A stretch of DNA of 55,634 nucleotides from the NCBI GenBank assembly GCA_038318285.1, contig JBBQCC010000001.1, forward strand, positions 1 through 55,634. Reading direction: 5' to 3'. This document shows, piece by piece, positions 11,633 to 45,926 of the stretch. The notes beneath the pieces were generated by a model. The model ran no database searches and was not told the DNA's origin. It saw only the letters and a list, made by a program, of their open reading frames with translations. The stretch's first letter is position 1; every line of letters starts with the position of its first letter. This DNA comes from Planctomycetota bacterium. GTDB taxonomy: Bacteria > Planctomycetota > UBA1135 > GCA-002686595. The position numbers and the translations under genes are program-made.

Positions 11633-11776
11633 ATCAGCGTGCTTGGTCGATGAGCGAGCCTGGCTCCTTTCTGGGTTGGCGTTTGGTTTCGCGGCTCGCC
11701 GATCGGATGTAGGCTGATCGGGGGCACAAAAACGCCCGCCACCGCTCCCGCGACTGCAACTGTTCCGGAGTCGATC

Positions 11777-24102: not shown

Positions 24103-24118
24103 CGTTGGGGGTGAGGCG

Positions 24119-24706
24119 CTACCCGTTCTCGCTCTCGATCGCGTCCCGCAGCCAAGCTCGCGCGAACGCCCAATCGCGTTTCACGGTCGCTGGGGACGCT
24201 TCGAGAGCCAGCGCGGTCTCCTCGATGCTGAGGCCCGCGAAGTAGCGCAGTCGCACGACGGCCGCCGCTTTCGGGTCCACGCCCTCCAAGCGCACGATCA
24301 TCTCGTCGAGGACCAGGAATCCGGCCGATTCCTCGGCCGAGGACGGATCTGGCAGCTGAGTCAGCTCGATCGCCGCCCGCCGCGCCGTCCCGCCGCCGCG
24401 CTGGTCGGCGGCCTTCGCGCGCGCGTGATCGATCAGGATGCGGCGCATCGCCTGTGCTGCGGCTGCGAAAAAGTGCGCGCGGTTCTGCCAAGGGATGTCG
24501 CGCGGACCGACGAGCCGCAAGTAGGCCTCGTGCACGAGCGCGGTCGCGTCCAGCGTGTGACCGACACGCTCTCCACGCAGTGCCGCCTGCGCCGCCGCGC
24601 GCAGGTCGGCGTACACCTCCGGCAGCAGCGCCGCGATGCGTTCGTCCGGACCCTGGCTGCCGTCCAGCAGCACATCGAGGGTTGCGCGCGACGGTTCGGG
24701 GTGCAT
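24119..24706 (-). CDS. ECF-type RNA polymerase sigma factor (STK-associated type)
   Basis: 195-aa ORF located 16 nt upstream of the kinase. It has the region-2-like LVHEAYLRL and the region-4 HTH LSIEETALALEASPATVKRDWAFARAWL, as in the Planctomycete-type ECF family. No anti-sigma gene is adjacent. Confidence 0.88.
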   Translation of the reverse strand: MHPEPSRATLDVLLDGSQGPDERIAALLPEVYADLRAAAQAALRGERVGHTLDATALVHEAYLRLVGPRDIPWQNRAHFFAAAAQAMRRILIDHARAKAADQRGGGTARRAAIELTQLPDPSSAEESAGFLVLDEMIVRLEGVDPKAAAVVRLRYFAGLSIEETALALEASPATVKRDWAFARAWLRDAIESENG

Positions 24707-31786: not shown

Positions 31787-31851
31787 GCGGTTCGGTTCCT
31801 CGGCGGGTGCTCCGGCGGTGCTAGCATCCGTGCAGGCAGACGCCGATCCCG

Positions 31852-32448
31852 ATGCCCGACGATAGCGCAGAACTCGCAGAGCAGGCAGCTCGCGGTGACG
31901 CGGGTGCGATGCAATCGCTGCTCGAGCAACACCTGGACGGCTTGCGCGCATTCGTACGGCTGCGCACCGGCCCCGAACTGCGTCGGCGCGAATCCTCCTC
32001 GGACCTGGTGCAGTCCGTGTGCCGCGAGATCCTCGAGCAAGCGCACCGCTTCCAGTACCCGAGCGAGTCCGCGTTCCGCCGCTGGCTGTACACGACGGCG
32101 CTGCGCAAGATCTCCGACCGCGCCGAGCACTGGCGCGCGCAGAAGCGCGACGTCGGCCGCGAACAGGCGTTCCCGTCGCAAGGCGGCGAGGCCGGGTTGA
32201 TGCGGCGCTACGCCTCGTTCTCGAGCCCCAGTCAACACGCGATGTTGCGCGAGGAAGTTGAGCGCGTCGAACGTGCGTTCGAGCAGCTCTCGGAGGAACA
32301 GCGCGAGGTCATCACACTCGCCCACGTCGCCGGGCAGTCGCGGGCCGAGATCGCCGAGCACATGGGGCGCACGGAAGGGGCCGTGCGCGTGCTGCTGCAC
32401 CGTTCGCTGGCGCGGCTCGCGGAGATCCTGGAAACGCCGCGAACATGA
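31852..32448 (+). CDS. ECF-family RNA polymerase sigma-70 factor
   Basis: 198-aa ORF, divergent from the kinase with a 65-bp spacer. It has a region 2 (DLVQSVCREIL, RRWLYTTALRKI) and the region-4 HTH QSRAEIAEHMGRTEGAVRVLLHRSLARL. Confidence 0.88.
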   Translation: MPDDSAELAEQAARGDAGAMQSLLEQHLDGLRAFVRLRTGPELRRRESSSDLVQSVCREILEQAHRFQYPSESAFRRWLYTTALRKISDRAEHWRAQKRDVGREQAFPSQGGEAGLMRRYASFSSPSQHAMLREEVERVERAFEQLSEEQREVITLAHVAGQSRAEIAEHMGRTEGAVRVLLHRSLARLAEILETPRT

Positions 32449-32534
32449 GGGTGCGGGTTCCGTCGGCCCGCGCTAGCCTGAGGCTCACGCCCGAACATCC
32501 CTCGGGCTCGCACGGTCCCTTCCCGGCCCTTCCC

Positions 32535-33437
32535 ATGAACCTTCGCCTCGCTGGCGCGCTGATCGCGGCGTGCCTCCTCGTTCCCTCGTTCGCTCGCGCG
32601 GACACGATCTGCTACTCGGAGACTTTTCTGAGTTCCACGACGGACTGGAAGCAGTACGCCAGTGTCCAGCAGTTCAACCCGAACCTGGGGACGCTGCTCG
32701 CCATCCAGATCCGCGTGGATTGCACGATGGTCGCGTCGTACCGCGTCGAGAGCCTGGACGCGGCTCCGGCGGCAACGGCGGCGGACATGGCCTTCCATTG
32801 GGGGCTGAACGATTACTCGGCCACGACCGTCCTCTTCGGTGCGGCCGGCGCCACGTTCCACGAGGTGTTCACCGCGTTCGATGGCGTGATCGACTTCGCC
32901 GGGACTTCCGGTGCCGTGCACCGAAACCTCACGTTCGTGGATTCGATGCAGTACACGCCCGCGCTGACACCGCTGAGCATCGCTGCGTTCGTCGGCGTGG
33001 GTTCGACCGGATTCAGCCTGTTCGCCACTTCGGCCACGAGCATCACCGGACCAGCGAACCTCATCTCGCAGTTCACGACGTCGGCCAGCATGACGATCGA
33101 GACCTGCTACACGTACGCGATCGACTGCAACCACAACGGGGTCCCCGACGACGTGGACCTGATGATGGGCGCGCCGGATCAGTACGGCCCCGGCACCTGC
33201 ATGCCCGACGGCGTCCTCGACGCGTGCCAGCCCGAACCGGACTGCGACGCGGACGGTCTCCCGAACCGCTGCAACATCCTGCAGGGCGAGCCCGATCTCT
33301 ACGGGCCGACCGCCTGCCTACCCGACGGCACGCCGGACAAGTGTCAGTTCATGCCGGACTGCGATGGCGACGGCCTGCCCGACGTGTGCGAGCCCGACAC
33401 GAACGGCAACGGCATCCCGGACGACTGCGACGTCTGA
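32535..33437 (+). CDS. Secreted protein: choice-of-anchor-like beta domain + Cys/Asp-rich calcium-binding-type repeats
   Basis: The Met at 32535 is followed by a signal peptide (MNLRLAGALIAACLLVPSFARA). The C-terminal third has repeated PDCDADGLPNRC / PDCDGDGLPDVC / DTNGNGIPDDCD units (thrombospondin-type-3-like DxDxDG). Confidence 0.75.
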   Translation: MNLRLAGALIAACLLVPSFARADTICYSETFLSSTTDWKQYASVQQFNPNLGTLLAIQIRVDCTMVASYRVESLDAAPAATAADMAFHWGLNDYSATTVLFGAAGATFHEVFTAFDGVIDFAGTSGAVHRNLTFVDSMQYTPALTPLSIAAFVGVGSTGFSLFATSATSITGPANLISQFTTSASMTIETCYTYAIDCNHNGVPDDVDLMMGAPDQYGPGTCMPDGVLDACQPEPDCDADGLPNRCNILQGEPDLYGPTACLPDGTPDKCQFMPDCDGDGLPDVCEPDTNGNGIPDDCDV

Positions 33438-33485: not shown

Positions 33486-34025
33486 TCAGCTGCCGGCCGC
33501 CGCCAGCACTTCGTGCGCGATCGCGACGTGGTGTCGCGAGTGCACGCTGCCGAACCGCGCCCACTGGGCCAGGTCGAGCGGCCCGAGCATCTGGTGGGGG
33601 ACGAACAGCACCGCGCGCTCGGCCTGCGGGTCGAAGCCGCTGCGAAACGCGGCCAGGTCGTCGACGAACTGCGCGGCCCACGATCGGGTCGTGGCCGGGT
33701 CCACGTCGGAAGGCGGTACGACCATGCGCGGCGACTTCGCCTGCCCGCGCGGCAGCGTGCCGGCGGCCAGGAAGGCCAGCGCGCGCTCGTCCTGCGCGGC
33801 GTCGGCGACGACCAGGAGGCCGGCCCCACGCGCGAGGTTCCCGAGGTTGCGCAGGATCAGCTCGTTCGCGAGCGTCGCGTGGCTCGCGTGTTCGAGAGCC
33901 GACCAACCGGAGATCGTCGGCGCGCGAGCGCTCAGCGCGCGATCGTCGAGCGCGAGCAGGCGGACGATCTCTCCCGCCGCCGCGGTAAATGCATCGAGTT
34001 CTGCACCGGCATCGAATCGTGACAT
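33486..34025 (-). CDS. DinB-family (DinB_2-like) protein
   Basis: The Met at 34025 (MSRFDAGAELD) gives 179 aa. Its His-containing helices (ALEHASHATL and HSRHHVAIAHE) are typical of the DinB four-helix metal-binding fold. Confidence 0.75.
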   Translation of the reverse strand: MSRFDAGAELDAFTAAAGEIVRLLALDDRALSARAPTISGWSALEHASHATLANELILRNLGNLARGAGLLVVADAAQDERALAFLAAGTLPRGQAKSPRMVVPPSDVDPATTRSWAAQFVDDLAAFRSGFDPQAERAVLFVPHQMLGPLDLAQWARFGSVHSRHHVAIAHEVLAAAGS

Positions 34026-34064
34026 GTCCGCGCGAGAGTACGGTAGTCTGGTCGCGGCCGCACG

Positions 34065-34835
34065 ATGCGCATCGTCTCCCTGTGCCCCAGCCTGACCGAG
34101 CTCGTCTTCGCCCTCGGGCGTGGTGACGAGTTGGTCGGAGTCACCGAGTGGTGCGTGCACCCCGAGGCCGGCGTCGCACGCGTCGAGAAGGTCGGCGGGA
34201 CGAAGACGCCCGACGTCGCACGCATCGTCGCTCTGGCACCTGACCTCGTGCTGATGAACGAGGAGGAGAACCGGCGCGAGGACGCGGAGGCGCTGCGCGC
34301 GGCGGGCCTCGAGTGCCACGTCTCGATGCCGCGTGATGCCGCGGAGACGGCGGACATGGTGCGTTCGATCGCGACGGCAATCGAGCGCCCGAAAGAGGGC
34401 GCGGCGATCGCACTCGACATCGAACGCCGAGTCGTCGAGGCTCGGCTCAAGGCCGACGGGAAGCCGCGCGTGCGCTTCGCGTACTTGATCTGGCGCAAGC
34501 CGTTCATGGCCGTGAACGGTGACACGTACGCCAGCTCGTTGCTCGAGCTGGCCGGCGGCGAGAACGTCTTCCACGATCGCGCGGATCGCTATCCGCTCGT
34601 CACTGCGGAGGAACTTGCCGCAGCCGCGCCCGATGCGATCCTCCTGTGCACGGAGCCATTCCCGTTCCAGGAGCGTCACGCCGACGAGTTGGCGACGTTG
34701 ACCGGGCTCGCGCGCCATCGCTTCGAGATCGTGGACGGCGAATACCTGTCGTGGCACGGCTCGCGCACACCGGCGGGCGTCGACTACGCGGCGTCGCGCA
34801 TCGAAGCGGCGCGCACGTCGATCGGCGCGGTCTGA
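34065..34835 (+). CDS. Cobalamin/metal-binding TroA-BtuF-like (helical backbone) protein, no signal peptide
   Basis: 256-aa ORF. The N-terminal RIVSLCPSLTELVFALG...LVGVT and KVGGTKTPDVARIVALAPDLVL are typical of class III periplasmic-binding-fold proteins. Confidence 0.72.
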   Translation: MRIVSLCPSLTELVFALGRGDELVGVTEWCVHPEAGVARVEKVGGTKTPDVARIVALAPDLVLMNEEENRREDAEALRAAGLECHVSMPRDAAETADMVRSIATAIERPKEGAAIALDIERRVVEARLKADGKPRVRFAYLIWRKPFMAVNGDTYASSLLELAGGENVFHDRADRYPLVTAEELAAAAPDAILLCTEPFPFQERHADELATLTGLARHRFEIVDGEYLSWHGSRTPAGVDYAASRIEAARTSIGAV

Positions 34836-34838
34836 GCG

Positions 34839-34854
34839 TCCGCGGCGCCGCGGA
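34839..34854. repeat. Perfect 16-bp palindrome filling the gap between convergent genes
   Basis: TCCGCGGCGCCGCGGA equals its own reverse complement. It lies between the TGA stop at 34833-34835 (+) and the stop at 34855-34857 (-). Confidence 0.8.
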
Positions 34855-36252
34855 TCAGCGCGGCTTGTAGCGCCAGACGATGTCCTTCGCGTCGTCGGTG
34901 CCGCCGTCGTCCACACCGTCGGGTCCGACGGACCACAAGATCACGAGCCCGCCGTCGTTGAACCCGCAGCGGATCGGCTTGCCGTCGAAGGGGTCGCTCG
35001 TCTTCGGGATGAATTCGAGCAACGCCTTCGCGTCGGTGCGGAACGCCAAGAGCGCCGTGCGCGCCAGCACGAGTCGTGCCTCGAGCTCGTCCGCCAGCGC
35101 CGTGATCGCGTCGGGCGCCGTGGCGAGTGCGCTGGAGATCGGTGCCATCACGCGGTCGAACCAGCCCGGTCTCGGCGGCGACGCGCGCCGGAACGCGGCA
35201 TCGTCCAGGCTCGCGATGCGCTGCCCCCAGGTGTCGAGGAAATAGGCCTGGTCGTACGAGATGCGCAGGCTCGCCGGCAGGAACGAGTTCGCGGGGAGCT
35301 CGCTCCGATCTCCGCCGTGACGGATCAGCTCGAACGCGCGGTTCCCGAACGCACGCTCACCGGTGGCTGCGGTGGCGAGCTGCGCACGCGGGCGCATCGC
35401 CTCGAGATCCCTCTCGAGCCACGCGAGGTCCGTGCCCGGGTCGAGACGGGGCAGCGCGAGCTCGATCATGCCCAGCAGGCTGCGCTCGGAATCGAACACG
35501 CCGAACGCGCCGACGAGGAACGGCGCGCCCTCGTAGATGTGCGCGACGTCGCGTTGTGCGCGCAGGAGATCGGGGACGCGATCGAGTCTTTCGGACCACA
35601 GGGCCTGCAAGAGTTCGAGCTGCAGCGATGCGCCGACGTCGATCGTCGACTGGATGGGAAGCGTGGGAAACGTCGCGCCGGTCGCCGTCAGGCTGTCGAC
35701 GATCACCTGCGGGTCGATGGGGCCGTAACGGCCCGCGAGCATTCCGACCTCGCCGTGTGCGGCCATGCCCATCGCGGTCAGCCGCACCGCTTCGAGCCCA
35801 CACGGCGGCGTCACCACGATGCCGTCGTGCGAGTTCAAGATGTCGAGCACGCGTTGCACGGCGGCGGCGGCGTTCGCGCTGGATCCGGCGCAAGTCTCGA
35901 GCGCGGCGAACGCTTCCTCGGCCTCACCGCCGAACTGACCTTGCGCGGACTTCTCGCGCAGGGCGCCGAACATTGCCGCATCGGTCAGGGCGACGGGATC
36001 CCAGCGCGTGCGCGCGGCTGTCGCTTGCGCGAGCCACTGCGTCGGTTCGGGACGCGGATCGGCCGGGCGTTGCAGGTCCTCGGGCAGCGACGGCGCGCCC
36101 GACGCGGTGATCGCCAGGAGCTCGTCGTTGCGCCACTTCGCTCCGGCGAAACGCAGTACGAACGCAGTGGCGAGCACGAGCAGCACGAGCCCGATCGTCA
36201 CGACGCCGACGAGTCCGAGGCGCATGGGCTTCTTCAGCGTGGACTGCTTCAT
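34855..36252 (-). CDS. N-terminally anchored hypothetical protein with pseudopilin(GspG)-like C-terminal motif; last gene of the multiheme operon
   Basis: The Met at 36252 (MKQSTLKKPMRLGLVGVVTIGLVLLVLATAFVL) gives 465 aa. The body is mostly helical. The C-terminus DPFDGKPIRC...LVILWSVGPDGVDDGGTDDAKDIVW resembles the end of type II secretion pseudopilins. Confidence 0.65.
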   Translation of the reverse strand: MKQSTLKKPMRLGLVGVVTIGLVLLVLATAFVLRFAGAKWRNDELLAITASGAPSLPEDLQRPADPRPEPTQWLAQATAARTRWDPVALTDAAMFGALREKSAQGQFGGEAEEAFAALETCAGSSANAAAAVQRVLDILNSHDGIVVTPPCGLEAVRLTAMGMAAHGEVGMLAGRYGPIDPQVIVDSLTATGATFPTLPIQSTIDVGASLQLELLQALWSERLDRVPDLLRAQRDVAHIYEGAPFLVGAFGVFDSERSLLGMIELALPRLDPGTDLAWLERDLEAMRPRAQLATAATGERAFGNRAFELIRHGGDRSELPANSFLPASLRISYDQAYFLDTWGQRIASLDDAAFRRASPPRPGWFDRVMAPISSALATAPDAITALADELEARLVLARTALLAFRTDAKALLEFIPKTSDPFDGKPIRCGFNDGGLVILWSVGPDGVDDGGTDDAKDIVWRYKPR

Positions 36253-36293
36253 GGGGCGGCAGGATGCATCGCCGCCCGTTCTCGCGGCAAGGA

Positions 36294-37682
36294 TCAGTCG
36301 TGCACTTGTCCGTCCGGGTGGCAGTCGTAGCAGGCTGGGCTCGTGTACGAGTACCCGCGGACGCCGTTGTGGTGACCGTTCGTCTGACTCGGCGAGTGCT
36401 CGTGGCAGTTGATGCACGCGAACTGCCGGAACGAGTTCGGTGCCGGGTGGCACTCCTGACAAGAGATGTGGTTGTGGTGGCCGCTCGTGATCGGGAATTG
36501 CGGGTGCGTGAACGTCCCGTCGCCCCACGTGCGCGTCGTGTGGCAACCCTCGCACGACATGCCGATGCCGTTGCTGGCGTGCGGCGGCTGCGACGTGTTC
36601 GCGTAGTCGCTCGCGTGGCAGTCGATGCACCCCGAGGTGATGCCGGCGTGGCTGAAGTTCGCCCCCTTCCAAGTGCGGGTGGTGTGGCAATCCTCGCACG
36701 CCGTCGAGAAGTTCTGCGCGACGTGGTTCGGCGCCGTCTGGTAGTCGCTCGCGTGGCAGTCGATGCAACCCGACGTGATGCCGTTGTGGTTGAAGTGCGC
36801 GCCGCTCCAGCTGTTGATCGTGTGGCAGTCCTGGCACATCGTCGAGAAGTTCCCCGACACGTGGTTGTCGGCGCCCTGGTAGTCGCTCGCGTGGCAGGAG
36901 AAGCAGGCCGTGCTCAAGCCGCCGAAGTCCTTGCCCATGTGACAGGCCGAGCACGACAGTCCCGAGTGGCCGCCCTGCAGCGGGAAGAAACCGTGCTCGA
37001 AGCCGGCGCGCGACCAGTCGGTCGGCAGGTGGCAGCGTTGGCAACCGTCCGTCCAGCCCTGCGCGACGTGGTTCGGCTGCAGCGCGACGGCGAGGTCCTT
37101 CTGGTGGCAGTCCGCGCAGTTCGTGCTGGCCTGCACGAAGTTCCCGACCTGTGCGCCCGGGTGGCAGGCCCAACACGCCGTCGATGCGTGCGCGCCGGCG
37201 AGCGGGAAGCGCGTCGTCGCGTGCTGTGCGATCTGTGCCTTCGGGCGCCAATCGACGGCCGTCTCCTCGTGACACGTCGTGCAACCGGATCCGAGCTTGC
37301 CCTCGTGGATGTCCTCGTGACAACCGATGCAGCCGCGCTCCGAGAACCGCGCGACCGGTCCGCGGTCGTTGTGACAGCGCAGGCATTCGGCAGCCTCGTG
37401 CGCGCCGACGAGCGCGACACCCGTCTGCGCCGCGTGATCGAACTGGAAGTCGTCACGGATCGAGTGCCAGGTCTCGCCCGCGTGGCACAGCGCGCAGTCG
37501 GCCGGGAACGTGTCGTGGGGAACGACGGGGCCGCGCTCGGCCTGCCAATGCTGCGGCGGAACCGGATCCCAATCGTGTCGCGCACTGCCGTCGATCGCGC
37601 AGGCGAGCAGGCCCAGCGCCAGGGCCAGCGCCAGGATCGCAGCGTGCGCGCGCGGCATTCCGAAAAGACTTCGCGTTTGCAT
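36294..37682 (-). CDS. Multiheme c-type cytochrome lipoprotein (17 CxxCH motifs)
   Basis: The Met at 37682 is followed by a signal with lipobox-like LGLLAC. I counted 17 CxxCH motifs by hand. Three tandem ~45-aa repeats are present (C.SCHASDY...NFST.C.DCHT...W.GA.F.H.GITSG). Confidence 0.9.
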   Translation of the reverse strand: MQTRSLFGMPRAHAAILALALALGLLACAIDGSARHDWDPVPPQHWQAERGPVVPHDTFPADCALCHAGETWHSIRDDFQFDHAAQTGVALVGAHEAAECLRCHNDRGPVARFSERGCIGCHEDIHEGKLGSGCTTCHEETAVDWRPKAQIAQHATTRFPLAGAHASTACWACHPGAQVGNFVQASTNCADCHQKDLAVALQPNHVAQGWTDGCQRCHLPTDWSRAGFEHGFFPLQGGHSGLSCSACHMGKDFGGLSTACFSCHASDYQGADNHVSGNFSTMCQDCHTINSWSGAHFNHNGITSGCIDCHASDYQTAPNHVAQNFSTACEDCHTTRTWKGANFSHAGITSGCIDCHASDYANTSQPPHASNGIGMSCEGCHTTRTWGDGTFTHPQFPITSGHHNHISCQECHPAPNSFRQFACINCHEHSPSQTNGHHNGVRGYSYTSPACYDCHPDGQVHD

Positions 37683-37690
37683 GGTGGATC

Positions 37691-39364
37691 TCAGAAGCGG
37701 GTCTGGAGCCGGACGCCGAGCGTCCACGAATCGAGGTCGTCACCCATCGTGCGGTCGCCGTACACCGACAGATCCCAGCTTTCGGTCAGCGGCACGTCCA
37801 CCGATCCGAAGATCGAGTGCTGCGCGATCTGGTCGTCTGCGCCGCTGAAATCGGACTGTGTGTACCAGAACGACTGCCAGCCGAGCCCCAGGCCCGTCGT
37901 GCCGATCGTGTCGTGCAGTTGCAGACGCGCACCCGGGCCGGAGCTGTACGAGCCCTCGGCCCACTGCGCGGCGCCCGAGATCGAACTGCCACTGCCGAAC
38001 ACCTCGGACAGCGTTGCGCCGAGTTCGCCGCTGTAGCCGTTGTCGTTTTCGTCGAACCAGTTCTCGACGCGCGCATCGACGCGCACGCGCGTGCTGAGCG
38101 ACGTCCAGCCACTCAGGCCGATCCGGTCCAGCACGCTGTTTTTCACGTCGTCGGCGCGCCGCGGCAGGAATTCGTCGCGCAGCAGCTCGGGGATGCGACG
38201 TTCCAGTGCGTTGATTGCCAGTCCGCTCGTGGCCGTCGTGCGCCACGTCGCCGTGATGCGCGCTTCGGTCAGCTCGGCACCCGAGCCCTTGATCGTGTCA
38301 CTCGAATCGTAGAGGTCCACCCAAGCCGTCGCGCGCAACGAGACGCTCTCGGAAGGGCGCACCTCGGTCTGGGCGATGACGAGGTTGCGGTCCTGCTCGC
38401 CCTCGTGCCAGGTGTTCTGGTACGCGAGGCCGACCGTCGCGCGCCGCTCCGGATCGAAGGCGTAGCGGTAGTGCACCGACGCCTGCAGATCCTGGAACGA
38501 AGTGCGATCGGCGAACGGCTCCGGCATCCAGCCGAACGACACGCCAAAATCCGATCCTCCGCGTGTGCGGTGGTTCCATTCGGCGCCGTCGAGCAGTCCG
38601 AGTTCGGGCAGTCCCGCCTGCAGGAATCGGCCGAATTGGAAGTGGTTCGGTCGATCCTCGGTGCCGCCGAACTCGTACACGAACCGGTCGATGCGCACGT
38701 GCGACTGGTCGTAGTCGTACAGCCCGTCGTCGTTCGAGACGTCGCTCTGCCGGGTGAACGCCTCGACGTCGAACCGCAGCGAACCACCGTCGCCGAACGG
38801 GTTCTCGAGGCGGACGTCCGTGCCCACGGCCGCGAGTCCGTACTTGCGCGCGCCCTCGACGTCGTCCGTACCGTCGAAGCGGAACCAGGCGCGACCCGAC
38901 AAGCGCCGTTCGCGCTCCTCGGGGGCGATGCCGAACGCGGGTGCGAGCAGCGGCGTCTCGTCGTTCCAGGTCTCGGGCGGATGGGTCCACGGCGGGTGTT
39001 CGACGGCCGGAGCGGGCGTCCCCTGGACTTGTGGCGGAGTCTTCGTGCCGGGGCGCGAGTCGGGCACGATCGCTTCGCCGCGCGTGCCGACGACGGGCTT
39101 GTCCGATCCGACGTCGAGTTCGACGCGCGCGCCGTTCGTCGTGACGGACCGCACGATCCCGGTAGCGACGGTCGTGGTCTCCAGTCGGAACTCGACGCGA
39201 TCGCCTTCGGCCAGACCGCTGGACGATCCGCGATCGACGTAGACGGCCGAGCCCGCGATGCTCGTCACGCGAATCTCGACGCGCACGTCGGCGGCCGCAG
39301 CGATTCCGCACAAGAGCACGACTCCGAACACACCGTACAGCATCGACGATGCACGCGTTCCCAT
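37691..39364 (-). CDS. Outer-membrane beta-barrel protein (porin-like) with N-terminal soluble beta domain and Pro-rich linker
   Basis: The Met at 39364 overlaps the upstream stop by 1 nt (TGATG). It has a signal peptide (MLYGVFGVVLLCGIAAAADV) and amphipathic alternating segments rich in G/S/T/Y/W/D/R. The C-terminus WTLGVRLQTRF has an OMP-type terminal Phe. The product is 557 aa. Confidence 0.75.
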   Translation of the reverse strand: MGTRASSMLYGVFGVVLLCGIAAAADVRVEIRVTSIAGSAVYVDRGSSSGLAEGDRVEFRLETTTVATGIVRSVTTNGARVELDVGSDKPVVGTRGEAIVPDSRPGTKTPPQVQGTPAPAVEHPPWTHPPETWNDETPLLAPAFGIAPEERERRLSGRAWFRFDGTDDVEGARKYGLAAVGTDVRLENPFGDGGSLRFDVEAFTRQSDVSNDDGLYDYDQSHVRIDRFVYEFGGTEDRPNHFQFGRFLQAGLPELGLLDGAEWNHRTRGGSDFGVSFGWMPEPFADRTSFQDLQASVHYRYAFDPERRATVGLAYQNTWHEGEQDRNLVIAQTEVRPSESVSLRATAWVDLYDSSDTIKGSGAELTEARITATWRTTATSGLAINALERRIPELLRDEFLPRRADDVKNSVLDRIGLSGWTSLSTRVRVDARVENWFDENDNGYSGELGATLSEVFGSGSSISGAAQWAEGSYSSGPGARLQLHDTIGTTGLGLGWQSFWYTQSDFSGADDQIAQHSIFGSVDVPLTESWDLSVYGDRTMGDDLDSWTLGVRLQTRF

Positions 39365-41757
39365 CAGAACCCTCCTCGGCGCGCGACGTGGCAATCGCCG
39401 CACTCGACGCCCAGCGGCTTGTAACGGACGGCGCTGCCCCCGCCCGGGAGCGCCCAGGGCACGTGACACGCCGAACAGGCGAGTTGCGCGTGCGTGGTGT
39501 CGAGCGCGAAGCGCGCGTCGTGCTGGTGGTCGAAGCGGAGCGCGAGGAAGTCGGGCGCCGTCGCATGGCACGTCGCGCAGTCCGTCGATCCGTTTCGCGA
39601 GAACTGGCCCGCGTGCGGATCCGCGTGACAATCCGAGCAGTTCGTGCCGGCTGCGCGCGCGAAGCCGCGCGCGCCGAATGCCGTGTTGGAGGCCGCGCCG
39701 CCGCTGCGCGGGTGGCAACTCGCACAGCCCGCATCGGCGTGCACGCCCGTCAGGGCGAAACCCGTCCACGCAGCGTGGTCGAAAGCGCTCGCAGCGACCT
39801 CGGTGAACGATTCGGTCGTGTGACAGCGCGCGCACCCGGTGCGGCCGCCGACGTCGCCCGGGCGCCTCGGCCCATCGAACGCGCCCGCGTGCACATCGGT
39901 GTGACACGTCGCGCAGTTCTGGAACGAGCCTTCGCCGGCGTGGACGGTCGACCGCAGCGCGCGCTCGACACCGGCGGCGGTCGCGACCGCGCCGGAAACT
40001 TGCACGATCTCGCTGCCGCTCGGGTGACACGTCGCGCAGTCCGCTCGCGCGTGCGCGCCGTCGAGCGCGAAGCCGGTCGAGCGCGTGTGATCGAAGGCGT
40101 CGCGCGCTTGCTCGAAGCCATGCGGATCGTGGCAGGCCGTGCATGTCGGTGCATCCGGTCGCCGCGCGAAGAACCCGCCGTGCGCGTCGACGTGACACGT
40201 CGCGCAGTCCTCCGGCGACCCGGGGTAGGACTCGGCGACGACGCCGAAGCTGCGCCCGCGCTCGTCCGGTGCGGCGCGAGCGGCGTGACAGGCGGCGCAC
40301 TCGGACTCGGCGTGGGCGCCGACCAGCGCGAATCCGGTCCAGCGCGCGTGGTCGAAGGTCTCGGCGGCGACGTGCTGGAAGTCCGTCGTCGTGTGACAGG
40401 TCGCGCAGTCGTCAGCGCGCGCATTCGTGGCTGCGCTCGCGGTCGCCGCAAGACTCGCGGCCTTCTGCGCGAAGAAGCCTGTGTGCGCGTCGGCGTGGCA
40501 TGCGCTGCACGTCGCATTGGTGCCGTGGAAGACGCGCGGCGCGTCGCCGATCTGCGCGTGACACGCGCGACAGGCCGTCTTTGAGTGCGCGCCGGTCAGC
40601 GCGAACGCAGTGCGCGCGTGCTGGGCGAAGCCGAATGCCGGCGGGTCGAAGCGCTCGCGTTCGTGGCAGGCTAGGCAGCCGCCCTGCGCGAAAGCTCCCG
40701 TCTGGAACTGTCCGCCGTGCGGATCGGCGTGACAGGACGCGCAGTCGTCGGGCGTGCGCCCCGGGTGTGAGGCGCGGAAGTCGGCGAAGGCCTCTGCGTG
40801 TGCGTCCGGCGCCCTCAAGGTCGCGTGGCAGTCCGTGCAGGCGGCCGCGGCGTGCGGCGCGACGAGCGGGAAGCCGGTGAGGGCGTGCTCCGCGACGGTC
40901 AGGGTGCGCGGGCTGGCGAACGGACCGCCCGCGACCGGGTGGCAGCTCGCGCACGTCGCGCCGCGCTCGACGGCGATGCGCGCGACGATCGCGCTGATGA
41001 ACGGGGATGCGTGGGGCGATGCGTGACAGGCCTCGCAGCTGCGCGGAGTGCGCGTCGCCGTCTCGCCGCCGCCGGCCTCGATGGCGAACGCGGTGCCGGG
41101 CGCGTGACAGGCGACGCAGCTCGCCTGGGCGTGCACGCCGACGAGCGCGAACGAACTCGGGTGTTCGAACTCGGCGACGACGGCGAACGGCTCCGTCTCG
41201 CCGTGGCACGAGCGGCAGTCGGGCAACTTGCCCGCGTGCGGATCCTGGTGACAGCCCGCGCAATCCTGCGACTTGCCCGTGAAGCGCTGCGCGTCCTTTT
41301 CGAGCAGGACGACGTCGGCGTTTGCGTGACAGGCGCGGCAGGCGAGGCTCGTGTGCACGCCGCTCAGCGCGAAGCCCAGGCCCTCGTGCGCGAACGCATC
41401 GCGGTCGGCGACGCCGGCGAGCGCGAAGGCTCCTGCGCTGACCAACTCGAAGTCCACGCCATGGTGTTCTGCGTGGCACGTGCCGCAGCGCGCCACGTTG
41501 GGCAGCTTGCCGTGGAATCCAGTGCCCGCGGCGACTTGCGCCTCGACGTCCGCGTGGCACTCCGCACAGGCGGCGCGCATTTCGTCGGGCGATCCGCCAT
41601 GACACACGGCGCAGTCGTCGCCGTCGATCGAGGCCGACTTCTCGTGCACTGCGCTGATCGGGCCTGGGGACGCCGATTGCGTGTCCCACAACGCCAGCGA
41701 GATCGCCAGCAATGCCGAAGCGACCCCCAGCCAGATTCCCGCCGTGCGCGACTTCAT
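39364..41757 (-). CDS. Giant multiheme c-type cytochrome (26 CxxCH motifs; tandem c7-like tri-heme modules)
   Basis: The Met at 41757 overlaps the upstream stop (ATGA). It has an N-terminal signal/anchor (IWLGVASALLAISLAL). I counted 26 CxxCH motifs by hand. There are eight recurrences of F-x-H...F-x-L-x-G-x-H-x(4-5)-CxxCH. The product is 797 aa. Confidence 0.92.
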   Translation of the reverse strand: MKSRTAGIWLGVASALLAISLALWDTQSASPGPISAVHEKSASIDGDDCAVCHGGSPDEMRAACAECHADVEAQVAAGTGFHGKLPNVARCGTCHAEHHGVDFELVSAGAFALAGVADRDAFAHEGLGFALSGVHTSLACRACHANADVVLLEKDAQRFTGKSQDCAGCHQDPHAGKLPDCRSCHGETEPFAVVAEFEHPSSFALVGVHAQASCVACHAPGTAFAIEAGGGETATRTPRSCEACHASPHASPFISAIVARIAVERGATCASCHPVAGGPFASPRTLTVAEHALTGFPLVAPHAAAACTDCHATLRAPDAHAEAFADFRASHPGRTPDDCASCHADPHGGQFQTGAFAQGGCLACHERERFDPPAFGFAQHARTAFALTGAHSKTACRACHAQIGDAPRVFHGTNATCSACHADAHTGFFAQKAASLAATASAATNARADDCATCHTTTDFQHVAAETFDHARWTGFALVGAHAESECAACHAARAAPDERGRSFGVVAESYPGSPEDCATCHVDAHGGFFARRPDAPTCTACHDPHGFEQARDAFDHTRSTGFALDGAHARADCATCHPSGSEIVQVSGAVATAAGVERALRSTVHAGEGSFQNCATCHTDVHAGAFDGPRRPGDVGGRTGCARCHTTESFTEVAASAFDHAAWTGFALTGVHADAGCASCHPRSGGAASNTAFGARGFARAAGTNCSDCHADPHAGQFSRNGSTDCATCHATAPDFLALRFDHQHDARFALDTTHAQLACSACHVPWALPGGGSAVRYKPLGVECGDCHVARRGGF

Positions 41758-44135
41758 CCGAATAGATGCGCGTAGCGCAGCGCGAGGAAGACGTGCCAGC
41801 CGGTGATCAGGACCATGAACAGTGCCGCCCAGCGGTGGAACCAGCGCCAGGAAGCCAGGATCGTGCGCAGATCCTCGAAGTGCGCGGCCATGAGCGCCGT
41901 GCGGTGCGCCCGGCGCGCGAGCTCGGTCATGCGTGCCACATGATGGGTCGCAATGCCCTCCGCGACCGCCTGCGTGCGCAGCGCGGCGACGCGCCGACGG
42001 GCCGCGCGCTGGCTGGTCAACAGGGCGCGAATGCGGGCCCAGTACGAACCCTGCCAGCGTTCCTCCGTGACGACGCGCTCGACCTCCGCGCGCAGCTTGT
42101 CGGCGAACCCGCCGCGGCCGCGGTCCCACTCCGCCGACAGCGCGGCGAGTTGGCTGCGCACTTCGTCGAGCTCGAGCTCGCGCCCGTTCGCCGCCCGCGG
42201 CACGAACGAATAGAGGTAGCGTCCGATCGCGCCCGTCAGAACCAGGAACGCCATCGCCCACGCCGCATGACCGCCGACGGTCGATCGCGGATCCATGGCG
42301 CCGTGAACCAGGACGAGCAGCAGTGCGCCGATGCCGGTCGCGACGTGCGACGTCATCCAACCGCGCAGCGATCCCGGGATCCAGGCGAGCCGCAGATTGC
42401 GGCGCGCGAGGTACGCGAGGTTCGCCAGCACGAGGGCGGCGGCACCGAAGCCGCACGCGAGACCGATCGTGCCGGTGGGCGAGAGCAGGGCATGGTCGGG
42501 ATGGTGGGGGCGCGCGCTCGGCGCCGCGCCGTAGTAATCCGCGTGCGTCAGGACCCAGCCCAGCACCAGAACCGCGAGCCCGAGCGCGACGCACAGCGCC
42601 GGGACGAGACCCGTGCCCTGCTCGGCGAGCGGCGCCGGCTTCTCGTGCTGGCTCGGATCGAGCGATACGCCCGAGGCTTCGAGCACCTCGGTCGGCGGCG
42701 TTCCGCCCGCGAACACGAAGACCTCGTCGTTCGCCACCTGGGTCGTGCTTCCGTCCGCGAGCCGCAGCGCAACGGAGTCCTCGGCGATCGAGAGCACTTG
42801 GCTGCCGAACAGCGCCGTCAGTTGACCATCTCGCAACGCGTCCGCGACGTGCGCCTCGTTGCGCGACTTCAGGCGGAAGAACGCGTCCTTGCGGTACGAG
42901 ATCGAGACGTGATTTCCCGGCTGTTCCGCGAGGCCGAGGGCGGCTTCGACCGCGCTGTCGCCGCCGCCGACGACCAGAATTCGCCGCCCCTGGTACGAGT
43001 GCGCGTCCAGGAGCGAGTACGACACCTTGTTCAGGTCCTCGCCCGGAACGCCCAGCTTGCGCGGCGTGCCGCGTCGGCCGAGGGCGAGCACGACGCTGCG
43101 CGCGTCGAGGTGTCCCGTCAGCGTGTGGACGCGCAGGATGCCGTCGTCGAGCGTCTCGACGCGCTGGAACTGTTGGCCGCGGTGGATCGCGAGTTCGTGC
43201 TCGCGCACGACGCGTTCCCACAGCTCGATCAGCTCCTCTTTCGAGTAGCTCGTGCGCGTGAGCCGACCGACGAGCGGCAGGTCCACCGGCTGCGTCATGA
43301 CGAGCTTGCGGCGCGGGTACTTCGCGACCGTGCCGCCCAGCTCATCCTGTTCCAGCGTCGTGTACGACAGCCCGAGTTCCTTGGCCCGCAGCGAGCAGGC
43401 GATGCCCGCCGGGCCGGCGCCGACGATGACGAGGTCGAGCACATCCGATGTCTCGACTTCCGCGACCGCGACGCCGCCTCCGGCCTCCGCACGCGACGGC
43501 GTTGCATTTCCCCGGCGTCGCAGGCTGGGCGCGCTGACGAGCCGTGCGCGTCGCGCCGCCTCGTCTGCCGCTGCCGTGCCGTGCGCGATGGCGGTGCGCA
43601 CGAGCGCGTATCCCGTGACCTCGCCCGCCAGGAACAGTCCCGGCACGTGCGCGGACTCGTGGTTCTCGCGCAACACCGGCAGGTCTTTGCGATCGCTGAT
43701 GTCGCCGAGGGTGAGCGCAATCGCGCCGACCGGGCATTCCGCCGCGCAGCGTCCGTGGCCGACGCAGCGCGCGCCGTGCACGACGACCGCTTGACCGTGG
43801 ACGAGCTCGAGCACGCCCTCTTCGGGACACGCGGCGACGCAGGTGCCGCACCCGATGCAGCGCGACAGGTCGATGTGCGGATGCTGCAAGCGCGCGCGGT
43901 GACTGCCGGTCGCGCGCGCGCGATCCCGCTCCGCCAGCGTCTCGCGCAGTTGGCCCGACTCGGCTCGCCGCAGCGCGATGAGCCCGAGCGTCACGGCCAA
44001 GCCCACGACGAGGGCGATGAGTAGGATCCAGATCAAGGTGGACGCGCCGAACAAGTCCAGTGCCGAAAAGACCGTCCGCGACTTCGGTCTGCGTGGCGAC
44101 CGACTCTCCGGCCTCTTGGTTCGGCGGGGGAGCAT
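41754..44135 (-). CDS. Membrane fusion oxidoreductase: TM + 2x[4Fe-4S] ferredoxin + FAD/NAD(P)-binding (TrxR-like, no CxxC) + 5-TM domain with two H-x13-H helices
   Basis: 793-aa ORF. It has the cluster motifs CIGCGTCVAACP and CVGHGRCAAECP, and the dinucleotide motifs VIVGAGPAGIA and ILVVGGGDSAVEAAL. The C-terminal TM helices SHVATGIGALLLVLVHG and FHRWAALFMVLITGWHV each carry two His 14 residues apart. Confidence 0.85.
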   Translation of the reverse strand: MLPRRTKRPESRSPRRPKSRTVFSALDLFGASTLIWILLIALVVGLAVTLGLIALRRAESGQLRETLAERDRARATGSHRARLQHPHIDLSRCIGCGTCVAACPEEGVLELVHGQAVVVHGARCVGHGRCAAECPVGAIALTLGDISDRKDLPVLRENHESAHVPGLFLAGEVTGYALVRTAIAHGTAAADEAARRARLVSAPSLRRRGNATPSRAEAGGGVAVAEVETSDVLDLVIVGAGPAGIACSLRAKELGLSYTTLEQDELGGTVAKYPRRKLVMTQPVDLPLVGRLTRTSYSKEELIELWERVVREHELAIHRGQQFQRVETLDDGILRVHTLTGHLDARSVVLALGRRGTPRKLGVPGEDLNKVSYSLLDAHSYQGRRILVVGGGDSAVEAALGLAEQPGNHVSISYRKDAFFRLKSRNEAHVADALRDGQLTALFGSQVLSIAEDSVALRLADGSTTQVANDEVFVFAGGTPPTEVLEASGVSLDPSQHEKPAPLAEQGTGLVPALCVALGLAVLVLGWVLTHADYYGAAPSARPHHPDHALLSPTGTIGLACGFGAAALVLANLAYLARRNLRLAWIPGSLRGWMTSHVATGIGALLLVLVHGAMDPRSTVGGHAAWAMAFLVLTGAIGRYLYSFVPRAANGRELELDEVRSQLAALSAEWDRGRGGFADKLRAEVERVVTEERWQGSYWARIRALLTSQRAARRRVAALRTQAVAEGIATHHVARMTELARRAHRTALMAAHFEDLRTILASWRWFHRWAALFMVLITGWHVFLALRYAHLFG

Positions 44136-44444
44136 CGCATCCCCAAGCCTGGGAGTGCTTTAGGACGAAAGTACCATCCCGGCCTCTGAGCCGGGACGGG
44201 CGGGTCGCACCGCTGCCGAACGCGGTCTGTGCGGCGGCGCACGCCCCAGCGTCCAGATCGTGGACGTCGGCTGGTCCCGTGCATCGCTCCCGGGGATGGG
44301 AATCCGACCCCCTCGCGGACCCACGGATCCGGTTCACGATTGCATCCTCTGGGCGCCGGGTGGGGAATGTACGCGCCGCTGCCCCCTCGCCCCCAAGACG
44401 GGTCGGACAGCTCTTTCCCAACCGCTTCGCACCGAGGCTCCCTC

Positions 44445-45926
44445 ATGCATCGCACTCTGAAGCTCTCCACGTTTCTCGCACTCTCGCCGGCGCTCTTCGC
44501 TCAGGGCACGAAGCCCTACGAAGGACCCGGTCCCGTCGCCGAAGGCGGGTGCAACCCGGGCAACACCGCCAACCTGTGCGTGCCCGTCGACAGCACGCAC
44601 CAGGTCGTCGTGTTCGACGGTGTCGGCGGCAGCGGCCCGGCGAATCCGCTCGACCCGTGCCAGCGCAACGACGACGACGTCACGCTGGCGATCAACCTGC
44701 CGTTCACGTTCGACCTGTTCGGCTCGCCCCAGACGCAGGTGTTCATCAACAACAACGGGAACATCTCGTTCGGCTCGAGCTTCACCACGTTCACTTCGAC
44801 CGGCTTCCCCGTCGCCGGCTTCCCGATGATCGCGCCCTTCTGGGCCGACGTGGACACGCGCGACGGCGGGAGCGGCGTCGTCTACTACAAGATCGATGCG
44901 AACCGCCTGACGGTCACGTGGGACCACGTCGGCTACTACAGCTCCCACTCCAACCTGCTGAGCACCTTCCAGGTCATCATCAGCGACGGCACCGATCCCC
45001 TCGTGGGCCTCGGGCAAAACGTCTGCTTCTGCTACGGCGACATGGGCTGGACGACGGGCGACGCCTCGAGCGGCGTCGGCGGCTTCGGAGGCGTGCCCGC
45101 GACCGTGGGCATCAACGCCGGTGACGGCACGAACTTCTTCCAGCTCGGCCTCTTCGACCAGACGGGCAACGCCTACGACGGTCCGGGCGGCGCGAACGAC
45201 GGCGTCGACTTCCTCGACAACACGCGCCAGTGCTTCGTCACGGGCACGATCCAGAACTCGCCGCCGATCTTCATCAACAGCCCGAGCGGCTGCTTGGGCG
45301 CGTCCGTCGGCGTGCCTTTGACCTTCACCGTGCAAGCGATCGGTCCCGAGGCCGGTCAGACGGTGAACATCGTCGAGACGTCGGGCACGCCGAACGTCGT
45401 GTGCGTGCCGACGCCGGGCAACCCGGCCTCGATCCAGTGCACGTTCACGCCGAGCAGTGGCCAGACGGGCATCACGAACCTCGTGTTCGTGGCGACGGAC
45501 GACTTCATGCCGCCGGCGAGCTCGCAGCTCACCGTCTGCATCGACGCGGCCGAGTGCCACCAACTCGTCGGGCGCGGAGGCACGGGTTCGAACGTCGTGC
45601 TGTTCGGCCACGCCTTCGCAACGCACCTGACCTCGGTACGCCAGTCCTGGCCGGTCACGCTCTCGAGTCACCCGAGCCTGCGCGTGCCCCTGCTGACGAC
45701 CGGCCAACTGAACTTTTCGGTGCAGACGGTCATGTACAACCCGTCGGCATTCCCCACGAATCCCTCGCAGTGGTCCGCGCGGATGCGCCTCACCGTTCTG
45801 CCCGGCGCGATCGTGCAGGGCGAGCTGTTCGACACCTGGAACGGCATCCACCAGTCGCTCGCGACCTACCTCGACGGGAACGGCGACGCCTTCATGACCT
45901 TCCCGTTCACGATCGACGGGATGTGA
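44445..45926 (+). CDS. Secreted nidogen-like (NIDO) domain protein
   Basis: The Met at 44445 is followed by a signal peptide (MHRTLKLSTFLALSPALFAQG). The segment LPFTFDLFG...VFINNNGNISFG...IAPFWADVDTR...VYY matches the NIDO-domain pattern. The product is 493 aa. Confidence 0.72.
   Translation: MHRTLKLSTFLALSPALFAQGTKPYEGPGPVAEGGCNPGNTANLCVPVDSTHQVVVFDGVGGSGPANPLDPCQRNDDDVTLAINLPFTFDLFGSPQTQVFINNNGNISFGSSFTTFTSTGFPVAGFPMIAPFWADVDTRDGGSGVVYYKIDANRLTVTWDHVGYYSSHSNLLSTFQVIISDGTDPLVGLGQNVCFCYGDMGWTTGDASSGVGGFGGVPATVGINAGDGTNFFQLGLFDQTGNAYDGPGGANDGVDFLDNTRQCFVTGTIQNSPPIFINSPSGCLGASVGVPLTFTVQAIGPEAGQTVNIVETSGTPNVVCVPTPGNPASIQCTFTPSSGQTGITNLVFVATDDFMPPASSQLTVCIDAAECHQLVGRGGTGSNVVLFGHAFATHLTSVRQSWPVTLSSHPSLRVPLLTTGQLNFSVQTVMYNPSAFPTNPSQWSARMRLTVLPGAIVQGELFDTWNGIHQSLATYLDGNGDAFMTFPFTIDGM

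Follow-up and report, generated by a model that had tools for sequence, protein, structure and literature searches.

Described porin-cytochrome conduits and the Planctomycetota locus

In the MtrCAB conduit of Shewanella and the OmaB-OmbB-OmcB porin-cytochrome (Pcc) conduit of Geobacter, a periplasmic multiheme cytochrome sits in a large barrel and contacts a multiheme lipoprotein cytochrome. The two cytochromes carry 10 + 10 hemes in Mtr and 8 + 12 in Pcc, the MtrB barrel has 26 strands, and these conduits are fed with quinol-derived electrons by CymA, ImcH, or CbcL. To our knowledge, every characterized Gram-negative pathway of extracellular electron transfer (EET) enters the periplasm via a quinol dehydrogenase (CymA, ImcH, CbcL, or CbcBA). 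Here, we analyze a five-gene operon (g1 to g5) in a 55,634-nucleotide stretch of DNA from a Planctomycetota bacterium (assembly GCA_038318285.1, contig JBBQCC010000001.1, positions 1 to 55,634; hereafter the window). On balance, we favor the view that its first four genes, g1 to g4, encode a porin-cytochrome conduit whose inner-membrane entry is wired to a cytoplasmic flavo-iron-sulfur dehydrogenase, and that this conduit would run outward and bypass the quinone pool.

The nearest layout in the literature is that of the PCC3 and PCC4 clusters. He et al. (2017; PMC5566968), who predicted these porin-cytochrome clusters, reported that their "conserved inner membrane protein" has ~300 aa and five transmembrane (TM) helices; W-x3-H-x13-H occurs on both TM3 and TM5, and TM4 bears SGxxG. 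They likened this protein to the ferric reductase domain and proposed a role as a quinone-active cytochrome b. PCC3 hosts comprise Sideroxydans, Leptothrix, and other Proteobacteria, and the function of PCC3 is so far a prediction.

Comparison of the two layouts revealed that the porin, periplasmic cytochrome, lipoprotein cytochrome, and inner-membrane roles are filled here by g3, g2, g4, and the C-terminal module of g1, respectively. As in PCC3, a barrel accompanies a very heme-rich periplasmic cytochrome (21-27 hemes in PCC3 and 20-29 here, in both cases in steps of three), and the extracellular cytochrome, for which g4 is the candidate here, is variable in heme number, with 10-35 hemes reported for PCC3 and 13-46 for the g4-type proteins. 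Residues 500-793 of g1 (294 aa) have the five TM helices, both copies of W-x3-H-x13-H, and the [S/T]GxxG motif, but as one domain of a fusion protein. At the level of its predicted parts and its sequence signature, the cassette has the defining features of PCC3. The differences lie in the input side, the gene order, and the hosts: a ferredoxin and a flavoprotein of thioredoxin reductase (TrxR) fold are fused to the membrane module here, or encoded nearby in relatives, whereas no such input module is mentioned for PCC3, and the present systems belong to Planctomycetota or, as split forms, to Elusimicrobiota and Myxococcales.

The initial annotation of this DNA, made from the sequence without database searches, had not recognized the combination of genes as a described system. 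It is undescribed only in part, because a porin, two cytochromes, and a five-TM protein are the PCC3/PCC4 layout, whereas the flavo-iron-sulfur fusion was found in no paper. The supplements of He et al. (PMC5566968) contain no mention of FAD, of Planctomyc-, or of the domain names and accessions that we searched for, and no description of a flavo-iron-sulfur fusion or partner for PCC-type inner-membrane proteins was found in the literature, subscription journals being outside the coverage. The only related mention is a FeGenie-style "porin-cytochrome c complex" annotation, possibly of this operon, in the metagenome-assembled genome (MAG) OFTM248, from which one of our g1-g4 loci (L033) originates. 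A profile search of a word-indexed protein database with the g1 membrane domain returned just fragments of the same fused family and no proteobacterial PCC3 protein. What is new is the cytoplasmic NAD(P)H/ferredoxin-type input module, and what was already known, as a prediction, is the PCC3/PCC4 layout.

The likeness to Mtr and Pcc does not extend to family-level homology. The scores were 70 bits against TIGR03508 (DmsE/MtrA; cut-off 192) and 42 bits against TIGR03507 (OmcA/MtrC; cut-off 209), and MtrB was not among the top 50 Foldseek hits of g3. We therefore rejected membership in the MtrCAB family on these thresholds. Our locus also differs in its size, with 26 + 17 hemes and a 22-strand barrel compared with the fewer hemes of the known conduits and the 26 strands of MtrB.

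The conserved unit is a four-gene cassette

The ORF map confirmed five open reading frames (ORFs) on the minus strand at 34855-44135, in a window with a G+C content of ~69%. The junctions are as first annotated: a 4-nt overlap (ATGA) between g1 and g2, a 1-nt overlap (TGATG) between g2 and g3, then gaps of 8 and 41 nt. The CxxCH counts of 26 in g2 and 17 in g4 were likewise reproduced, and a hydropathy scan agreed with the signal peptide of g3, whose OMP-type C terminus reads ...LQTRF, the lipobox LLAC of g4, and the single N-terminal TM helix of g5. The domain reading given earlier for all components was borne out by Pfam/NCBIfam, hydropathy, and AlphaFold2 (AF2).

The extent of g1 needed revision. 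Its longest ORF starts at ATG 44135, and this is the version of 793 aa, preceded by 309 bp, that the initial annotation reported; we use its residue numbers throughout. The ORF exists, but the reported length is probably an over-extension. The stretch 44036-44135 adds 33 Arg/Pro-rich residues that are absent from most close homologues, and the homologues begin with M-x-W-x-L-L, which aligns with a TTG codon at 44036. The closest relatives have 756-763 aa. Because the homologue N termini match this TTG, g1 probably comprises 760 aa (41754..44036), which leaves a non-coding region of ~408 bp (44037..44444, from the ORF map and the start analysis) between g1 and a divergent gene for a NIDO-domain protein. 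The promoter of the operon presumably lies within this shared region. Consensus scans of 34000-45000 returned neither a sigma-70-like promoter nor an intrinsic terminator, although such scans are uninformative for a high-GC phylum.

To assess conservation, we scanned one genome per species and obtained 535 stretches that encode a g1 relative, from which the best 80 loci (L001-L080) were analyzed. Nearly all of these are labeled Planctomycetota or one of its sublineages, including Pirellulaceae, Phycisphaerales, and Brocadiaceae; a few carry the label "bacterium" or another taxon. Among loci with enough DNA downstream of the g1 homologue, g2 was present in 74/75, g3 in 67/68, and g4 in 61/62, and the order g2-g3-g4 was kept in 60/60 loci. 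A g5 homologue was found in only 8 of the 56 related loci with enough downstream DNA, and no flanking gene family around the cassette was common to more than 12 loci. Since g5 is rare and no flanking family is widely conserved, the conserved unit is g1-g4. The five-gene unit first proposed stands for these four genes, which the neighborhood check showed to be co-conserved in order, and not for g5, which is not part of the conserved system.

Some Planctomycetota MAGs hold two or three copies of the cassette on different contigs (L038/L056 and L048/L064/L077), and short contigs truncate some of these copies.

The N-terminal half of g1 resembles an NAD(P)H:iron-sulfur oxidoreductase

Homologues of the g1 type with ~740 aa number in the thousands, and their annotation is just "NAD(P)-binding domain-containing protein." The N-terminal half of g1 consists of a TM anchor (aa 37-55, 43971..44027, minus strand, hydropathy scan), a ferredoxin-like domain for two [4Fe-4S] clusters (aa 85-140, 43716..43883, Pfam Fer4_10, Fer4_7, and Fer4_21), and an FAD/NAD(P)H flavoprotein domain (aa 234-500, 42636..43436, Pfam Pyr_redox_3, E 4e-45). 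We evaluated residue conservation in 23 full-length homologues that are 54-82% identical to g1. Seven of the eight cysteines of the cluster motifs (C93, C96, C99, C103, C124, C130, and C134) are invariant, as are the glycines of the FAD motif GAGPAG and the NAD(P)H motif GGGDSA. Hydropathy and the AF2 secondary structure place an Arg-rich stretch directly after the anchor helix; because of this arrangement, the positive-inside rule would put the Fe-S and flavin domains in the cytoplasm.

The best PDB matches of the flavoprotein domain, both by sequence and by fold, are YpdA/Bdr, which depends on NADPH, and the TrxR-type ferredoxin-NADP+ reductases. In the fold comparison, a Foldseek search with the full g1 model ranked YpdA and ferredoxin-NADP+ reductases at the top (E 1e-18 to 1e-15), a result that is dominated by the flavoprotein domain and does not inform on the membrane domain. 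With these proteins g1 shares the fold, the Rossmann motifs for FAD and NAD(P)H, and the lack of a redox-active CxxC. The CATC motif of TrxR aligns to SLLD in g1, and we consequently rejected a function as a thioredoxin or disulfide reductase. Identity with YpdA itself was rejected as well, as the YpdA equivalog profile scored 162 bits against a cut-off of 340. The TrxR motif that binds the 2'-phosphate, HRR, aligns to YRK, so that an Arg is kept in g1. TrxR-type ferredoxin-NADP+ reductases exchange electrons with Fe-S ferredoxins; g1 differs from them and from YpdA in that its flavoprotein is anchored in the membrane and forms one polypeptide with both a ferredoxin-like domain and a transmembrane module of cytochrome b type. 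Taken together, these features make the N-terminal half resemble an NAD(P)H:iron-sulfur oxidoreductase to which a ferredoxin-like partner has been fused.

The membrane module of g1 appears to be a distant relative of ferric-reductase-type cytochromes b

The C-terminal part of g1 (aa ~500-793, 41757..42623, minus strand), delimited by invariant residues and AF2 helices, is a putative di-heme-b module. Hydropathy and AF2 predict five TM helices and a cytoplasmic helical insert of ~110 aa. Its motifs are W593-x3-H597-x13-H611 on helix 3, T634-G-x-x-G638 on helix 4, and W763-x3-H767-x13-H781 on helix 5, and all four His residues are invariant in the 23 homologues. Each of TM3' and TM5' has one His close to its cytoplasmic end (H597 and H767) and one close to its periplasmic end (H611 and H781), both by hydropathy and in the AF2 model; the modeled geometry is that of a two-heme transmembrane wire with one His pair per leaflet.

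An exhaustive HMMER search yielded 1108 proteins at E<=1e-3, among them stand-alone homologues of ~295 aa. Both W-x3-H-x13-H motifs and [ST]GxxG are kept in 67 stand-alone relatives of 265-335 aa from this search, down to 26% identity to the g1 module. The first residue of [ST]GxxG is Ser in 17 and Thr in 44 of 68 relatives.

The affiliation of the module emerged from its homologues. No significant Pfam match was obtained for the C-terminal membrane region of g1, which itself gave weak, sub-threshold matches to Ferric_reduct and DUF4405. When 13 homologous domains were compared, Ferric_reduct gave sub-threshold matches to 10/13 at E<=0.01 (best 2.6e-6), DUF4405 matched 8/13, and Ni_hydr_CYTB, the prokaryotic cytochrome b561 family, matched 6/13. 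In a profile search of the PDB, the membrane domain gave just a non-significant match to cytochrome b6 helix B (E 0.2). DUF4405 proteins bind heme b experimentally, and their AlphaFold models resemble MsrQ (PMC11334425). These weak but recurrent matches suggest that the module is a distant relative of the ferric-reductase/DUF4405 di-heme cytochromes b, and they speak against the earlier statement that g1 is built from parts unrelated to the NOX/FRE reductases.

The resemblance to NOX/FRE, to MsrQ with its flavin reductase Fre, and to DUF4405 and PepSY-like proteins lies in two predicted bis-His hemes b across the membrane, held by two H-x13-H helices. In NOX/FRE and MsrQ, as proposed for g1, an NAD(P)H flavoprotein on the cytoplasmic side supplies the electrons, which exit on the outer face. 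The dehydrogenase parts, in contrast, are different: NOX uses FNR-type FAD_binding_8/NAD_binding_6 domains, whereas Pfam and Foldseek found neither of these in g1, just TrxR-fold Pyr_redox domains that, with the two [4Fe-4S] sites, are N-terminal to the membrane module. g1 further differs from NOX/FRE in its five TM helices and its helical insert, and it would deliver its electrons to a multiheme cytochrome wire and not to O2, Fe-chelates, or MsrP.

Split forms link the flavo-iron-sulfur and membrane modules in other phyla

The two halves of g1 also occur as separate genes in Elusimicrobiota, in Myxococcales, and on unbinned metagenome contigs. In an Elusimicrobiota MAG and on four further contigs, a gene for a 450-482-aa protein with Fer4 and Pyr_redox_3 domains is located immediately upstream of the membrane-protein gene, with a 4-nt overlap in 4/5 cases. 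These upstream proteins are 45-49% identical to the N-terminal half of g1 and have an N-terminal anchor helix. In a Myxococcales MAG (L088), a 666-aa Fer4 and Pyr_redox gene lies downstream of the membrane-protein gene, and its product is 37% identical to the N-terminal half of g1. A three-gene form, in which the membrane protein is followed by a separate ferredoxin and then by a separate flavoprotein, was found on one contig. The six longer split loci contain a g2-like cytochrome in 6/6 cases (12-35 hemes) and a g4-like cytochrome in 5/6; an unannotated ORF whose C terminus is aromatic or hydrophobic is present in 5/6, and three of these ORFs are weakly g3-like. The Myxococcales locus is a further architectural variant, with an N-terminal extension of ~220 residues on the flavo-iron-sulfur protein (10926-12926) and 35 hemes in the g2-like cytochrome.

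A more distant clade was recovered from metagenome contigs with a narrower clade alignment of the stand-alone membrane proteins. Nearly every contig of this clade that includes downstream DNA has a g2-like multiheme cytochrome after the membrane-protein gene (20, 23, and 33 hemes where complete), usually followed by a 10-heme cytochrome. A homologue of the N-terminal half of g1 (38-42% identical) is encoded on 21 of the 31 contigs of at least 5 kb, either divergently or a few kb downstream. Because the flavo-iron-sulfur and membrane modules are fused in Planctomycetota and adjacent or nearby genes elsewhere, a functional link between them is suggested by the Rosetta stone argument. Judged from these gene arrangements, the association of a flavo-iron-sulfur protein with the membrane cytochrome is general and ancient, and the Planctomycetota fusion is one arrangement of it.

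These data bear on the main rival explanation, in which the conduit exchanges electrons with the menaquinone pool. The five-TM module would then be a quinone-active cytochrome b, and g1 an NAD(P)H:quinone and/or quinol:cytochrome c oxidoreductase. In its favor, a quinone-active cytochrome b is what He et al. (PMC5566968) proposed for proteins with the same signature, the module weakly matches the cytochrome b561/Ni_hydr_CYTB family, which is quinone-reactive, and has a motif like helix B of cytochrome b6, and a quinol dehydrogenase is the established entry of the characterized Gram-negative EET pathways. However, the flavo-iron-sulfur module, fused or nearby across several phyla and adjacent in the split loci that were looked up individually, would provide a complete cofactor chain without a quinone. 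Moreover, the module has no recognizable quinone-binding motif, though none is specifically searchable. We consider quinone coupling unlikely, if the strongest of the competing explanations.

The heme-rich wire, the barrel, and the lipoprotein cytochrome

The g2 gene (39364..41757, minus strand) encodes a 797-aa cytochrome c with 26 CxxCH motifs in Cytochrome_C7 and c3 repeats, corresponding to 30.7 aa per heme; the value for g4 is 27.2, and neither protein contains CX3CH or CX4CH. The g2 homologues in the best 80 loci mostly have 26 hemes and otherwise 23, 20, or 29, differing in steps of three. These steps suggest triheme, c7-like modules. An N-terminal TM helix that looks uncleaved is conserved in 68 g2 homologues, with SPGPLSxVHA and the first CxxCH coming after it. 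g2 is thus probably anchored in the inner membrane by this helix, which suggests that its first hemes lie beside the periplasmic heme b of g1.

The g3 gene (37691..39364, minus strand) encodes a 557-aa outer-membrane protein without a match in Pfam or NCBIfam. Its AF2 model (predicted local distance difference test score (pLDDT) 83.9, predicted template modeling score (pTM) 0.76) comprises a signal peptide, a small periplasmic beta domain at the N terminus (aa 26-101), a Pro-rich linker, and a 22-strand beta-barrel (aa 154-556). Foldseek matched it just to large barrels such as the usher pores PapC/FimD, at a template modeling score of ~0.45. The C-terminal residue of the homologues is Phe in 50 and Leu in 11. 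Standard barrel geometry (n=22, S about 24) gives an estimated Cα-Cα diameter of ~40 Å; 22-strand TonB receptors hold a plug domain in this range. The initial annotation had counted an ordinary small-pore porin as evidence against a conduit; the model has 22 strands rather than the 16-18 of a general porin, and because its diameter is in the range that holds the plug of TonB receptors, g3 is not expected to be such a porin.

The N-terminal beta domain of g3 is conserved, with near-invariant residues (D44, G46, D55, R72, and E82). Its sole matches, of OB/S1/CusF type, were very weak; a role in docking the periplasmic cytochrome, or as a plug, is conceivable.

The g4 gene (36294..37682, minus strand) encodes a 462-aa lipoprotein cytochrome c with 17 CxxCH motifs. 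A strict lipobox Cys after a hydrophobic stretch was found in 52/66 homologues, and a lipobox-like Cys was seen by eye in the other 14. The heme number of the homologues in the best 80 loci varies widely, from 13 to 46. We regard g4 as the candidate outer-surface component, which would be exposed to the exterior.

A different placement of these proteins would confine the system to the periplasm: g1 and g2 would feed a reaction there or at the inner face of the outer membrane (e.g. a detoxification or a soluble acceptor), g4 would face the periplasm, and g3 would move a substrate and house no cytochrome. Lipoproteins face the periplasm by default, the g3 barrel lacks detectable MtrB homology, and MsrQ-type di-heme proteins serve periplasmic enzymes (PMC11334425), all of which would fit. 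Yet the way in which a wire of 20-29 hemes, a barrel of 22 strands, and a multiheme lipoprotein are strictly kept together in the four-gene cassette mirrors the logic of Mtr and Pcc, no catalytic periplasmic enzyme is conserved in the neighborhood of the cassette, and the hypervariable heme number of g4 is what has been reported for extracellular PCC3 cytochromes. We therefore think a periplasm-limited function very improbable, the least probable of the alternatives considered here.

Proposed electron path and its direction

Our preferred reading, a quinone-bypassing conduit to the surface, rests on what was observed: which domains are present, that the heme and cluster ligands are conserved, how the genes are ordered, and that the parts stay together whether fused or split; cofactor occupancy, the identity of the donor, the direction of flow, the bypass of quinones, and the surface exposure of g4 are what we infer. 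In the proposed path, NAD(P)H, probably NADPH, would reduce the FAD of the TrxR-fold domain, or alternatively reduced ferredoxin would enter at the level of the Fe-S clusters. The two [4Fe-4S] clusters would pass electrons to the heme b on the cytoplasmic side (H597/H767), from which they would cross the membrane to the heme b on the periplasmic side (H611/H781). They would then move to the membrane-proximal hemes of the anchored 26-heme g2, which would span the periplasm and be inserted in the 22-strand g3. At the outer membrane, the lipoprotein g4 with its 17 hemes would take them over and reduce extracellular acceptors, for example Fe(III)/Mn(IV) minerals or humics.

Transfer from the negative to the positive side would be assisted by the membrane potential and would conserve no energy. 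Because of this, the system would act as an electron-disposal valve that re-oxidizes NAD(P)H during fermentative or oxygen-limited growth, rather than as a coupling site. We favor outward flow because it would be downhill in potential and aided by the membrane potential.

The opposite direction has a precedent in the iron oxidizers. PCC3 clusters were discovered in Fe(II) oxidizers and modeled as uptake systems, and multiheme wires are reversible in principle, so that the conduit might take electrons from a cathode, from reduced humics, or from Fe(II) outside the cell and deliver them via g1 to NAD(P)+ or ferredoxin for biosynthesis. On bioenergetic grounds, however, reduction of NAD(P)+ (about -320 mV) by donors at the level of Fe(II) or humics would be uphill and would also run against the membrane potential. 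The operon encodes no recognizable ion-translocating or bifurcating partner of g1, and the flanks of the window contain genes of heterotroph-type metabolism and not of autotrophy. Inward uptake therefore appears improbable to us.

Several observations weigh against an outward, quinone-bypassing conduit. The remaining contigs of at least 5 kb in the distant clade have no flavo-iron-sulfur gene nearby in the fetched DNA. At L037 (9887-12202), the one locus that departs from the conserved arrangement, a paralogue of g1 (54% identical) has unrelated genes behind it; cytochrome and barrel genes are absent from the 10 kb downstream, and the ORFs examined contain no CxxCH. The score of g1 against Pfam Ferric_reduct (PF01794) is 15.9 bits at a cut-off of 28, and the full-length g1 model is of moderate quality (pLDDT 71, pTM 0.46) and does not fix the distance from the Fe-S clusters to the hemes. 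Finally, the quinone-active cytochrome b proposal of He et al. (PMC5566968) covers related inner-membrane proteins, and the PCC3 systems of iron oxidizers are generally assumed to run inward.

The orphan g1 of L037 may pair with genes located elsewhere or use another acceptor.

Implications of a cytoplasmic input module

The Planctomycetota fusion and the split genes elsewhere (Elusimicrobiota, Myxococcota, and numerous organisms of soil and sediment) might represent a widespread class of EET in which a membrane-bound flavo-iron-sulfur/di-heme-b protein oxidizes cytoplasmic NAD(P)H or ferredoxin and electrons pass via a periplasmic wire of 20-33 hemes and a barrel to the surface, without the quinone pool. 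We put this forward tentatively, as a possibility that falls somewhat short of being probable. If true, it would be a prokaryotic "NOX wired to a nanowire" for redox balancing, and the inner-membrane proteins of PCC3 and PCC4 in general may not be quinone-coupled, contrary to what has been assumed since 2017. The scheme offers a concrete hypothesis for this unexplained "conserved inner membrane protein."

A fused NAD(P)H/ferredoxin-type entry would solve the problem differently from a quinol dehydrogenase. It would conserve no energy, could be fast, and would have the help of the membrane potential. With such an entry, minerals or humics could serve as a sink for the reducing equivalents of fermentative or microaerobic heterotrophs, Planctomycetota among them. 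Because g1 relatives were found in 535 stretches of species-representative genomes and split forms occur in other phyla, such systems could matter for the cycling of iron, manganese, and humics in soils, sediments, and wastewater systems. The g1 fusion protein would also be a compact candidate part for engineering the wiring of NAD(P)H to electrodes.

The g5 gene and the flanking genes

The last gene of the operon, g5 (34855..36252, minus strand), is an ORF for a 465-aa membrane-anchored protein with one N-terminal TM helix. It has no match in Pfam, NCBIfam, or PDB (Pfam and PDB up to E 10), and a GspG-like C terminus was rejected, as the Pfam and PDB searches gave it no support. Its distribution marks g5 as a lineage-specific accessory, apparently restricted to the closest relatives of the source organism.

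The genes flanking the cassette are functionally unrelated to it and encode a Ser/Thr kinase, an extracytoplasmic function (ECF) sigma factor, DinB, a periplasmic binding protein, the NIDO-domain protein, a GH38-like protein, an M64 peptidase, and IspH. The NIDO-domain gene (44445-45926, plus strand), divergent from g1, encodes a secreted protein with a Nidogen-like domain (E 8e-26); this domain is known mostly from animals. On the other side of the operon, a secreted 330-aa protein (32445-33437, plus strand) has a repeated Cys/Asp-rich C-terminal motif, DCDxDGLPxxC, and no Pfam match. At 28925-32448, a Ser/Thr protein kinase of ~1000 aa with tetratricopeptide repeats adjoins an ECF-type sigma factor, and a second, similar-looking pair of a large and a small ORF is located upstream, at 20950-24706.

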